Below, one piece after another: positions 2,775-64,000 of a stretch of DNA of 64,000 nt (the stretch's first letter is position 1; the number at the start of each line of letters is the position of its first letter). This DNA is from a virus. Both the position numbers and the translations under genes were made by a program. A model generated the notes under the pieces. That model had not been told where the DNA came from, made no database searches, and was given only the letters and a program-made list of their open reading frames with translations. The stretch covers positions 14,259 through 78,258 of the IMG/VR virus record IMGVR_UViG_3300036820_000014; one strand, given 5' to 3'.

Positions 2775-3074
2775 TCAGACATCGGCGTCCTCCACTTCGT
2801 CTTCCATGAGCCAGCCGAAGTGCGCGGCGACGAGACGGCGGGCCTTGGTGAGAACGTCGCAGGGGACATGCTCGGTATAGCGACGTTCCAAGAGCTCAAA
2901 GCCACGAAACCTGGAAATGAGGGGGAGGACGCCGTACTCTGAGTTGGTCGCTTCAACGATGCAACGGTGCATCATCTCGCTGGCCTCCTCCATTTGTTGC
3001 TGGGTCACGTCATCAGGAAGCGCTCCGGTCGCGATGTGGAGTGGTTCCCCTCCGCAAGTCCCGCAGACGCTCAC
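2775..3074 (-). CDS. hypothetical protein
   Basis: 99-aa ORF in operon, N-terminal CxxC. Confidence 0.5.
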   Translation of the reverse strand: MSVCGTCGGEPLHIATGALPDDVTQQQMEEASEMMHRCIVEATNSEYGVLPLISRFRGFELLERRYTEHVPCDVLTKARRLVAAHFGWLMEDEVEDADV

Positions 3075-3111
3075 CGTCGCGCCCCAAGTGCCAGCCGATC
3101 ACGACACCGGA

Positions 3112-3393
3112 TCACGAGACGTCCTCAGGCAGTTCGCCGAGCACCATCCGCGTCGCCTTCTCGCAAATGAAAATCTCGTCGTGAGTGAGGTGACGATCCC
3201 ACCAGAAGATTGAGTCCGACGGGCTAGAAGTGTCGACGTACTGCGGTTGCAGCCCGGCCTCGCTGATGGCAACCTCGAACTCGGCGGCAGCACTGATGCG
3301 CCATGCGTCGTACTCCCAGCGCTTCTCCCAATCGAAGGGCGCCCCAAGTGCCAGCCGACAGGTGGTCATGAGGCGACGGGGGTAGTCAGACAT
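3112..3393 (-). CDS. hypothetical protein
   Basis: MSDYPRRL start overlaps the upstream gene end. Confidence 0.5.
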   Translation of the reverse strand: MSDYPRRLMTTCRLALGAPFDWEKRWEYDAWRISAAAEFEVAISEAGLQPQYVDTSSPSDSIFWWDRHLTHDEIFICEKATRMVLGELPEDVS

Positions 3394-4326: not shown

Positions 4327-4664
4327 CGCTTGACTCGCTCGGTCCCGTCGACGCGAAGCTCCGCCGTTAGGCCACCCAAGTCATCGTGCAACTCAGCCCC
4401 GGGAACGAGGAGGATGTCTCCGAGCTCGACGGCTCCGCACGGGACGAGTTCGGTCCTCTGAAACTGTTGCGGTGTCACTTCGGCTTCCGGTTGAACCAGG
4501 CCACGGCCACGAGCGCGGCCAAGAGAGCCACGAAGCAGATGACGATCGATTCCTCAAGCCCGGTCACAATCGCTCCGTGTAGTTGGCGAGCATCGTGAGG
4601 TCGTGCTCTAAGACGATGAAGAGATCGGCGACCGCGTCAGCATCGACAAGCTGGCTGGAGGTCC

Positions 4665-62107: not shown

Positions 62108-62953
62108 CTAGGAAACCGGCTGGCCGTTGATCTTCAGGTTGAACGCCTGGAGCCCGAAGGTCTGCTGACCGTTCGTGTAGCAAAGCTCGGCGCCCTCACC
62201 GTCTTGCCAGAAGTGAGGGGCGCTGACGAGCCAGCCCTGCGACTGTGCGTATTGCAGGAAGGCGAGCACGTCCGTCTGATCGGACGTGTAATTCGTGACC
62301 GCCTTGAACGTGACGATGTCGCCGTTCGACTGTCCGAGACCGCCCGCCAGCCACACGCTGAAGGCCCGACCGTTGATCGTGGTGGTTCCCACATCGGTCC
62401 CGGCGGGGACCTGGTTGCAGGTGTAGTGCCAGATCATCAGCTCCGTGTGGGTGCTGGCGTCCGACCACTCGTTCGCGTCACCTATCCAGTCGTCCGAGGC
62501 GTACTCGTAGTCGTTGCCGCTACAAGACGGAGGCGTCCCGTAGATGCGGAAGTTGCTCGTCATCGAAGTGAACGAGGAGATGAGCGGAGCAGCGAGGGTG
62601 ACGTTGGTGTCCGGGTAGCTCTGGACCGCGCCGTTGTCGCCTGTCTGATTGGCGCTCGCAGTGACGTACCAGGAGTTCTTGTTGCAGGCGTAGAGAGTCT
62701 GGGAGATGTTGATGCCATCCCACACGTCTTGCGAGAGGACCGAGTGACCGTAGGGACCGGCGTGACCCTGTGGATCAGTGATCCCCTTCGCCGGCTGAGG
62801 GTTGGTACATGGGTGATAACCGGGTCCACCCGTGTCGGGACTTGCGTGCGCGAGGTCGGGTGGGAGCCCAGACACCGAACCGAAGATGGCGAGCCCGAGC
62901 GCCACGATAAGCGTGACCCACAGAAGGAATCGCAACCGGAAAACCACTGACAT
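62108..62953 (-). CDS. secreted/anchored GH12-like glycoside hydrolase
   Basis: Signal/TM; VQSYP, YEYASDDW, TELMIW, TINGRAFSVW, GAEL. Confidence 0.7.
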   Translation of the reverse strand: MSVVFRLRFLLWVTLIVALGLAIFGSVSGLPPDLAHASPDTGGPGYHPCTNPQPAKGITDPQGHAGPYGHSVLSQDVWDGINISQTLYACNKNSWYVTASANQTGDNGAVQSYPDTNVTLAAPLISSFTSMTSNFRIYGTPPSCSGNDYEYASDDWIGDANEWSDASTHTELMIWHYTCNQVPAGTDVGTTTINGRAFSVWLAGGLGQSNGDIVTFKAVTNYTSDQTDVLAFLQYAQSQGWLVSAPHFWQDGEGAELCYTNGQQTFGLQAFNLKINGQPVS

Positions 62954-63018
62954 GGATCGACCTCCCTGAAGTAGTCGAATCCCCGAAGGTTAGGAACGCC
63001 GGTGTCACTCTTTGGGGG

Positions 63019-63288
63019 ATGCTTGCTTACCCTGCTGGAGAACCGGACGTTTTAGACCTCGGCCTGCGTCACTTCGTCCTTGTCGACCAAGAGGGCGACA
63101 CTGTCCTCTGGTGGCACGATTGCCCCGCCGTAAAGCATGTGGCCTGGGGTTGGATCGGGCGCAATGGTTCTGTCGTCTCGGGCCACGTGGTCCGCTCGTG
63201 GTCGCCGCTAGACGTTCAGGGCTCGCTCGTCTGTGAACACTGCCGCGATCATGGATTCATCCGCGCGGGTCGGTGGGTGCCCGCGTGA
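63019..63288 (+). CDS. DUF6527-like protein
   Basis: PL.VQGSL.C..C.DHGFIR.GRW. Confidence 0.65.
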   Translation: MLAYPAGEPDVLDLGLRHFVLVDQEGDTVLWWHDCPAVKHVAWGWIGRNGSVVSGHVVRSWSPLDVQGSLVCEHCRDHGFIRAGRWVPA

Positions 63289-63472
63289 TCCCTTTGCACA
63301 TCGTCAAGCATCCGTTCCCTGAAAACAGGGAGCCCGGAATGATGTGGCGCTGATCACCGTGTCGCCGTCGATCGATGTCGAGTGCTGGATCCGACAGCCT
63401 GACGGCTCAAGCGTGCGTGATGGGTCCTACTGGCACGGCTTCATCCGAAACGGTCAGATCGACCCCGGCTAA
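63285..63472 (+). pseudogene. broken DUF6527-like paralog
   Basis: VIPLHIV...PGMMWR* then out-of-frame ITVSPSI...YWHGFIRNG. Confidence 0.55.
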
Positions 63473-63563
63473 TAGATCCATTAACCGCCTTGTCCAGTGA
63501 TGCGCTAGAAATCCTGACCAGGGAGAATGCTGGTTTCTCTACCTCAAGTGAGGGGACGAAATC

Positions 63564-63698
63564 AGCACGGCCCTGACCGGACACGACTGCGGAGCTTCCA
63601 TCGCCAGCGCCTCAGGAGGGTCCACGGATTTGCACCGGGATCACTGGTCTTTGCGTGCTTACCGCCTGAAGTGCTACCCGGTCAGGGTTGTCCGTGCT
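63564..63698 (-). ncRNA. putative structured RNA closed by a long bulged stem
   Basis: AGCACGG-CCCTGACCGG pairs with CCGGTCAGGG-(TTGT)-CCGTGCT; internal GGTGCAAATCC T-loop-like hairpin. Confidence 0.45.
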
Positions 63699-63727
63699 CC
63701 TGGCCCGCATTGGACACGAATGGGGAA

Positions 63728-63802
63728 GGCAGCGGCAGGGAATCGAACCCTGCGACCTCCGGACTTCTCCGGCGCTCGCGCACCTCATCGAGCTGCGCTG
63801 CC
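63728..63802 (-). ncRNA. tRNA-like element lacking an anticodon loop
   Basis: GGCAGCG/CGCTGCC acceptor stem, GCTCG/CGAGC D stem, CCGGA-GAAG-TCCGG, GCAGGG-TTCGATT-CCCTGC. Confidence 0.7.
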
Positions 63803-64000
63803 TCCAACCGCCAGCGTAGTAATGACAGCCGGTTTTTGCTAATGGAGGATGAGCGGGCTTATCTCGGGCTTTCAGCCCGCTCAACGGCTGAGCACCTAAC
63901 GAATCCAACGTGCTCCCCCACACCGCATCGCACAAGTCTCGAAGGTTTAACCCTATACGCGAGTCGACCCCGGCGGCGGACCGGGATCGTAAGGCCGACT

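Follow-up and report, generated by a model that had tools for sequence, protein, structure and literature searches.

The locus described here raises the question of why a virus should carry, among its late genes, a sequence with the architecture of a tRNA in which the anticodon loop is missing, and what such a sequence might do. The window analyzed in this study is a stretch of 64,000 nucleotides, corresponding to bases 14259-78258 of a 78,258-bp IMG/VR virus record. A 127-bp terminal repeat in this record represents an assembly overlap, and the genome is circular or terminally redundant with a length of 78,131 bp; an independent per-run assembly recovered it as a single contig of 78,161 nt, and another contig extends 1.26 kb beyond the window end. 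Nearly all genes around the element are on the minus strand, and the element is co-directional with the flanking late genes and with two tRNA-Ser genes. Its setting comprises the following features:

Minus strand, gene order: large terminase, tRNA-Ser(UGA), tRNA-Ser(GCU), portal, 1,269-nt gap, GH12-like gene, MuF-like head-morphogenesis gene, 702-aa head protein
62108..62953, minus strand: GH12-like gene, the first minus-strand gene downstream of the element (Pfam Glyco_hydro_12, E 3.5e-16)
62954..64000, strand not applicable: the window part of the 1,269-nt gap from the portal stop to the GH12-like start, which continues 222 nt past the window end on the circular genome
63019..63288, plus strand: 89-aa ORF with a C-x2-C...H motif (no Pfam or PHROG family)
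63728..63802, minus strand: the whole element, a tRNA-derived anticodon-less cloverleaf (from the sequence, a descriptor matched in 0/200 shuffles, matches of the covariance model R1 and the contigs of three runs)
63850..63883, minus strand: 10-bp G+C-rich hairpin with a 14-nt loop and no U tract (-19.4 kcal/mol, z -3.2), 47 nt upstream of the element

The element is a 75-nt minus-strand cloverleaf running from 63802 to 63728, with its 5' end at 63802 as read directly from the sequence. It begins 420 nt past the portal stop and finishes 774 nt ahead of the GH12-like start. The parts of the cloverleaf are:

63796..63802, minus strand: 5' strand of the acceptor stem, GGCAGCG, pairing with CGCUGCC at 63728-63734 (7 Watson-Crick pairs)
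63774..63793, minus strand: D arm, GCUC(G)/(C)GAGC, with a 10-12-nt loop that includes GG; it matches the D arms of real tRNAs in alignment
63759..63772, minus strand: capped 'anticodon' arm, CCGGA-GAAG-UCCGG, with a 5-bp stem and a loop of 4 nt instead of 7, lacking U33 and an anticodon
63735..63758, minus strand: variable loop AGGUC and T arm GCAGGG-UUCGAUU-CCCUGC, with a T stem of 6 bp instead of the usual 5

The acceptor stem is separated from the D stem by C8 and A9, and G26 precedes the capped arm. The D stem has 4 bp, or 5 bp if G14:C21 pairs, and the element displays C8, G14 and C21 where U8, A14 and A21 are usual. Its 22-23 pairs include neither mismatches nor G-U pairs, and the stack of acceptor and T stems amounts to 13 bp, the usual value being 12. 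Position -1 is an A, and the trailer 3' of the element reads UUCCCCA, with no CCA encoded. An earlier, sequence-only reading of this DNA had listed the fully paired stems, the TTCGATT loop, the AGGTC variable region, the GAAG loop, the 6-bp T stem and the missing CCA, and all these details proved correct on the minus strand. Three other registers, namely a tRNA-His-like G-1:C73 register, an 8-bp acceptor stem and the use of the first hairpin as the anticodon arm, all gave worse pairing than the 7/6 cloverleaf.

To what extent is this cloverleaf real? A generous descriptor, allowing a T stem of 5-6 bp, a D loop of 7-12 nt, a capped or normal loop of 3-9 nt and a variable loop of 4-6 nt, recovered this site alone in the real 78-kb genome and matched none of 200 dinucleotide shuffles. 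Per-run contigs from three soil-metagenome runs match positions 63000-64000 with zero differences inside the element; these runs may include the source sample and hence rule out an assembly slip without representing independent occurrences. As the contigs are identical in the element, the 4-nt loop is not a product of such a slip, and the assembly error that the sequence-only reading had named as a possible source of the short loop can be set aside. ARAGORN called neither a tRNA nor a tmRNA on the element, and no Rfam family reached its threshold; the best matches in a 600-nt search were tRNA-Sec with 25 bits (threshold 47) and mascRNA with 23.6 bits (threshold 42.5), and in a search of the whole window the E-value for the element was greater than 0.5. 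The claim of a real, intact cloverleaf without an anticodon is thus upheld by the shuffles and the contigs of the three runs, with standard tools rejecting it as a tRNA. Among public runs, no RNA dataset was found that covers the region, a result that does not bear on its expression. Two long ORFs run over the element and show a flat G+C content by codon position (0.61/0.61/0.61), as opposed to about 0.68/0.47/0.78 in the real genes of this region; the element is non-coding.

The 75-mer folds with a z-score of -3.4. Its predicted minimum lies at -40.8 kcal/mol, and the textbook cloverleaf, at -37.3 kcal/mol, is 3.5 kcal/mol higher. The acceptor stem apart from G7:C69, the capped hairpin and the T arm have pair probabilities of 0.7-1.0, with the capped arm alone at 0.95-1.0. 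In the acceptor stem, the outer six pairs reach 0.8-0.99 and the seventh, G7:C69, 0.05. The D arm is the thermodynamically weakest helix of the element, with pair probabilities of about 0.01. When 60-nt flanks are included in the fold, the acceptor stem is out-competed.

The affinities of the element were examined by means of a covariance model, R1, derived from its single sequence alone. In 151 Gemmataceae genomes, R1 recovered a tRNA-Thr(UGU) with 46 bits and a tRNA-Ala(CGC) with 40 bits, and it also matched an unannotated tRNA-Met(CAU) of Bordetella phage PHB09 with 46 bits (L040:1463-1537). These alignments are full length: the real tRNAs carry 3 extra nucleotides only in the capped loop and have one T-stem pair fewer. 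Relative to them, the element has lost 3 nt of the anticodon loop, gained one T-stem pair and 3-4 D-loop bases, and carries C8, G14 and C21. Because real tRNAs align along the whole length, the element is, as judged by its sequence, a remodelled class I tRNA rather than a chance fold, in which decoding would no longer be possible. The suggestion of a tRNA mimic unable to decode is consequently borne out, both in the derivation from tRNA and in the absence of an anticodon loop.

A comparison with canonical class I tRNA (RF00005) brings out what has been retained and what has changed. Shared features are the arm order, the 7-bp acceptor stem, the GCUC/GAGC D stem with its GG, the 5-bp anticodon stem, the AGGUC variable loop, the UUCGAUU loop with G53:C61, and G26/A44; the elbow in particular keeps the T loop of the form UUCRANY, G53:C61 and the D-loop GG. 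In contrast, a 4-nt GAAG cap stands in place of the 7-nt loop, with neither U33 nor an anticodon, the acceptor and T stems are 7/6 (13 bp) rather than 7/5 (12 bp), and the core has C8, G14, C21 and A15/C48 instead of U8, A14, A21 and a 15:48 pair. T8 and A14 are present in all five Gemmataceae tRNAs that were compared. The D loop is 3-4 nt longer, and the element is rejected by ARAGORN and falls below the Rfam gathering score.

The departures from canonical tRNA are confined to positions 8, 14, 21 and 15/48, to the lengths of the D loop and the T stem, and to the anticodon loop. Base pairs are gained in two cases, at G14:C21 and with the sixth T pair. The joint probability of this pattern under one uniform neutral rate and a canonical ancestor is <= ~3e-5, with the grouping of sites made post hoc; the estimate would not hold for an ancestor that was itself a non-canonical phage tRNA, which is plausible here. 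On sequence grounds, the pattern of change points towards a maintained structure. The sequence-only reading had argued that intact pairing speaks against simple decay. This argument stands insofar as uniform neutral decay from a canonical tRNA fits poorly, but it is weakened because the phage's own tRNA-Ser genes are non-canonical and the ancestor may already have been an odd phage tRNA.

These two genes, tRNA-Ser(UGA), called by ARAGORN, and the adjacent tRNA-Ser(GCU), recovered with relaxed settings only, lie on the minus strand at genome positions 3006-3175, between the terminase and portal genes. Both have non-canonical cloverleaves. In tRNA-Ser(UGA), an 8-bp acceptor stem and a 4-bp T stem are possible and no CCA is encoded; its best Rfam match is tRNA-Sec, with 38.6 bits (threshold 47).

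The weaker R1 matches in phages were considered as candidates for further elements with a sealed anticodon stem. None of those in PHB09, Kikimora and Mel-JY01 qualifies, the one in PHB09 being an ordinary tRNA-Met that is missing from the annotation of the record. In the tRNA cluster of the Brevundimonas phage Kikimora (L042:1448-1530) there is an unannotated 83-nt non-canonical tRNA-like sequence with an encoded CCA, on which ARAGORN is silent and which appears to keep its anticodon loop. In the Synechococcus phage Syn5 (EF372997 19842-19882; L041:1484-1524), we observed an unannotated 41-nt element on the coding strand, between the scaffolding and major capsid genes. It combines a 5-bp terminal stem with a 6-bp T arm and UUCGAUU loop identical to those of the element described here, is preceded by a D-arm-like GGUAGAGC, and is probably a tRNA fragment or minihelix.

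The distribution of the element was investigated through its neighbors. Homologues of the portal protein number at least 50 among 5.8 billion sequences, the nearest being at most 56% identical, and single-protein scans of IMG/VR with the portal and GH12-like proteins recovered no close relative. Distant relatives, with portals about 47% identical, lack the element. Of the nine related loci recovered from IMG/VR, two have the MuF gene 20-81 bp behind the portal gene, and in the others the gap measures 280-1,460 bp and has unrelated content. These nine loci contain no tRNA and no Rfam match, and neither they nor five whole related phage records have a counterpart of the element, with R1 scoring at most 20 bits. 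At the nucleotide level, only the 89-aa ORF of the 1,269-nt gap finds a match in the nine loci, and the GH12-like gene is absent between the portal and MuF-like genes in 9/9. In one relative (L010:6001-9102), the match to the portal falls into two blocks about 1.1 kb apart (query residues 48-377 and 380-684), which suggests an insertion, be it an intein, an intron or a domain, within that portal gene. Exact and degenerate DNA patterns of the element returned 0 matches in IMG/VR, and a blastn search of cultured phages with the last 8 kb produced no match. Short matches to its 5' half in Planctomycetota genomes are G+C-rich coding strings, not tRNAs. The sequence comparisons indicate that the element, the GH12-like gene and the tRNA-Ser genes are lineage-specific, and that the element is a singleton within a lineage-specific insertion of 1.27 kb.

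This insertion holds no credible gene except the plus-strand 89-aa ORF. Homologues of the latter in two related phages (L006:7986-8249 and L007:2464-2733) are 39-58% identical and occupy other positions and orientations relative to the portal gene; by these comparisons, it looks like a small mobile accessory gene. Neither a sigma-70-type promoter nor an intrinsic terminator is found in the window part of the gap, and in the 500 bases past the window end, the sole match resembling a terminator is within the portal gene, at its 3' end (L002 369-386). A promoter-like palindromic motif, CTAWA-N7-TWTAG, occurs at five sites (9960, 20565, 22100, 38659 and 42006; 0.28 expected, five reached in 0/100 shuffles), and none of these is near the element. 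In sliding 120-nt folds over both strands of the gap, z-scores range from -2.5 to +1.3, and on this account thermodynamics alone does not support a large ornate RNA around the element. A search at permissive Rfam thresholds of the window, the related loci and the first 3.4 kb of the genome returned nothing relevant, including no raiA, GOLLD or ROOL-type match downstream of the portal gene. A domain of about 135 nt at 63564-63698, 30 nt downstream of the element, can be closed by a long-range stem of 16-17 bp (10 perfect pairs plus 6); with z-scores of -1.9 (minus strand) and -2.4 (plus strand), its strand is ambiguous, and it has no Rfam match.

What, then, might the element do? The reading that we tentatively favor, by analogy with tRNA-like RNAs elsewhere, is that of a non-decoding, tRNA-shaped, cis-acting module cut by RNase P and RNase Z, an idea already put forward in the sequence-only reading and one that agrees with what is established about these enzymes. 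RNase P measures the stack of T stem and acceptor stem and needs a T-loop-like elbow, not an anticodon arm, and it cuts tRNA-like RNAs that are not tRNAs, such as tmRNA and MALAT1/MEN-beta (PMC4919913). One tRNA-like module of a Y RNA, in which the acceptor stem has 7 bp, is likewise cut by RNase P and receives CCA (PMC4201824). Stacked acceptor and T stems, a T loop of canonical form and the GG of the D loop are all retained in the element, which on paper is what RNase P and RNase Z require of a structure. Furthermore, the late array must already be processed, since the two tRNA-Ser have to be cut from long transcripts. It is the retention of RNase P features, in a co-directional late array that is already processed for these tRNAs, that makes a processing module the most likely reading.

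According to this proposal, host RNase P would cut the 5' end of the element, at or within one nucleotide of the junction between 63803 and 63802, and RNase Z or exonucleases would trim its 3' end near 63727, with CCA possibly being added to the trimmed element. The cut would split the portal message from the downstream head-gene message, and the portal message would end near the 63850-63883 hairpin, which could protect the 3' end of the portal RNA. A tRNA-shaped RNA of about 75 nt would be released by these cuts. We infer transcription, cleavage and selection keeping the element. The efficiency and position of the predicted cleavage are uncertain, given the 13-bp stack, the lack of CCA and the A at position -1. 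Several observations weigh against a processing module: the element is a singleton, with no counterpart in the nine related loci and five whole records, and its minimum-energy fold is not the cloverleaf, the acceptor stem being out-competed in the presence of the 60-nt flanks. In addition, relatives in which the portal gene abuts the MuF gene need no processing site there.

A close parallel in mechanism would be mascRNA and the MEN-beta tRNA-like RNA (RF01684), in which a tRNA-shaped module with a shortened anticodon arm sits within a longer transcript. If the proposed mechanism holds, the likeness would extend to this placement, the cuts by RNase P and RNase Z, the structured 3' end of the upstream RNA and the freeing of a small tRNA-like RNA. 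However, those are elements of eukaryotic nuclear lncRNAs, the phage element scores 23.6 bits against a threshold of 42.5, and its processing is a proposal; common descent of the two is not plausible. Two other non-standard members of the tRNA world also differ. Like bacterial tRNA-Sec (RF01852; allo-tRNAs, PMC5389517), which has an 8/5 arrangement, the element has a 13-bp stack and a D stem that can extend through 14:21, and tRNA-Sec is its best Rfam model. Yet its arrangement is 7/6 and not 8/5, 9/4, 8/4 or 9/3, it has a 5-nt variable loop without a long arm and no anticodon, and it obtains 25 of the 47 bits; none of the hallmarks of tRNA-Sec, namely an 8/5 or 9/4 stack, a 6-bp D stem, a long variable arm and a UCA anticodon, is found in it. 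The tRNA-like domain of tmRNA is distinguished by a tag reading frame that separates its halves and by G3:U70, where the element has C:G at 3:70, and ARAGORN makes no such call on the element.

Nearly as likely as a processing module is an inert relic: a third tRNA gene of the phage that came in together with, or close to, the two tRNA-Ser genes, shed three anticodon-loop bases and persists as a pseudogene, with any cleavage by RNase P being incidental. This would accord with the rejection of the element by ARAGORN and by the Rfam thresholds, with its position in a lineage-specific insertion at a site that varies from 20 to ~1,460 bp among relatives, and with the lack of a counterpart in the relatives searched. 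Debris of tRNAs also occurs in intergenic regions among structural genes of other phages, as in the 41-nt fragment of Syn5 with the same T arm, and the element resembles phage tRNA pseudogenes and fragments in being tRNA-like but non-decoding, present once, not conserved and located in an intergenic region that varies. Given the non-canonical tRNA-Ser genes of this phage, C8 and the paired 14:21 could moreover be ancestral and the deletion recent. On the other hand, the element differs from such pseudogenes in being full length with all helices perfectly paired. All 22-23 pairs are intact without a single G-U, and the T loop and GG remain canonical while the core positions and the anticodon loop differ; the changes create two pairs or cap a stem rather than break pairs, a pattern that uniform decay of a canonical tRNA would be unlikely to produce. 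Among the working tRNAs described, we are not aware of any with a 7/6 arrangement of acceptor and T stems that a single deletion would turn into the element.

The next reading is one in which the element acts in trans as a decoy or sponge, its tRNA body and acceptor end titrating a tRNA-binding host factor such as a toxin acting on acceptor ends, a defence enzyme or a modification enzyme. We consider this unlikely. Its appeal lies in the retention of the elbow and the acceptor half with the loss of the decoding parts, and in the fact that the exact T arm is otherwise encountered only in YrlA-type Y RNAs, which themselves mimic tRNAs. The latter relationship was followed in some detail. The exact 23-mer comprising the 6-bp T arm and the last part of the variable loop is present in 2 of ~185,000 species genomes, both of them Gemmataceae MAGs, and in one metagenome contig, and it is absent from IMG/VR. 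All three sites are the T arm of a circularly permuted YrlA-type Y RNA and never that of a canonical tRNA. The YrlA-like modules lie at L012:2775-2844 in one MAG and at L013:4171-4252 and 4354-4417, ~100 nt apart, in the other; the Rfam YrlA model scores 26-35 bits there (threshold 69). In the metagenome contig (L024:2440-2640), a tandem pair of YrlA-like modules, judged without Rfam, is visible directly upstream of an ORF.

The identity of the element with the Gemmataceae YrlA-like RNAs extends to 27 nt. It may have arisen by convergence, since T arms have few degrees of freedom, or may be a hint, from sequence, of a planctomycete host. What the identity does establish is that known non-decoding tRNA mimics make use of a 6-bp T stem with this sequence. 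With YrlA and Yrn1 (RF02553; PMC4201824), the element shares the status of a non-decoding tRNA mimic that keeps a T arm, a D arm and an acceptor-like stem, and the arms follow one another in the same order in Deinococcus Yrn1, whose 'anticodon' stem has 5 bp and carries a shortened loop (PMC4201824). In YrlA, however, the acceptor is capped and the anticodon stem is open, continuing into the Ro60-binding stem, whereas in the phage element the acceptor is open and the anticodon stem capped. The element also lacks a Ro-binding stem and an Rfam match to YrlA, and the phage has no Ro60/TROVE gene. An assignment of the element to YrlA was accordingly rejected, on account of its unpermuted topology and the missing Ro60 gene. 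Three other families of bacterial tRNA mimics have a different connectivity (2026 preprint). In the literature we found no paper on phage elements with a sealed anticodon of this kind, and we regard the element as a variant among tRNA-derived, non-decoding tRNA-like RNAs.

Several observations speak against action in trans. The element is present in a single copy without a promoter of its own and is not conserved, and a six-frame Pfam family search of the complete genome detected no Ro60/TROVE, RtcB, CCA-adding-type nucleotidyltransferase or PTH2 gene. The more specific idea of the sequence-only reading, a decoy for anticodon nucleases, is disfavored because the loop that these nucleases cut and need is the one that the element has lost; among the families searched there is also no tRNA-related partner gene. 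A related and equally doubtful prospect is that the element belongs to a widespread, as yet undescribed phage class of tRNA mimics with sealed anticodon stems, processed by the host and acting in trans outside translation, for instance as sponges for toxins aimed at tRNA acceptor ends, for defence enzymes or for enzymes that modify tRNAs. Were such a class to exist, the 6-bp T arm held in common with planctomycete YrlA would represent a common mimic design.

Considerably less probable is a recombination scar or the remnant of an attachment site, that is, a copy of a tRNA left by integration and excision or taken up when host DNA and the neighboring accessory genes were captured. Genes for tRNAs are common integration targets, and the insertion also brought in the 89-aa ORF and the GH12-like gene. 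But the same six-frame Pfam search of the complete genome found neither a tyrosine nor a serine recombinase, no convincing att-like direct repeats flank the element, and the tRNA shape is full length rather than a 3' half. In 401 Planctomycetota genomes, similarity to the flanks never exceeds 40 nt, and no host tRNA with the sequence of the element was found in two Gemmataceae genomes. Finally, a chance cloverleaf in G+C-rich non-coding DNA, or a signal at the DNA level, to which the sub-threshold Rfam scores, the whole-window E-value above 0.5 and the resemblance of the 5' half to common G+C-rich coding strings might lend some color, is the least probable reading of all and close to refuted by the shuffle test and the full-length R1 alignments to real tRNAs at 40-46 bits, with the strand-specific T-loop motif moreover lying on the transcribed strand.

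On present evidence, the element is a single unconserved instance, and its value is mainly that of a clear and testable example. Should it prove functional, it would represent in a bacterial virus what tRNA-like processing modules are in eukaryotic long RNAs and tRNA punctuation is in mitochondria, and it would constitute a further case of a phage reusing the tRNA shape outside decoding. As standard tRNA finders miss elements of this kind, phage genomes may hold many of them.
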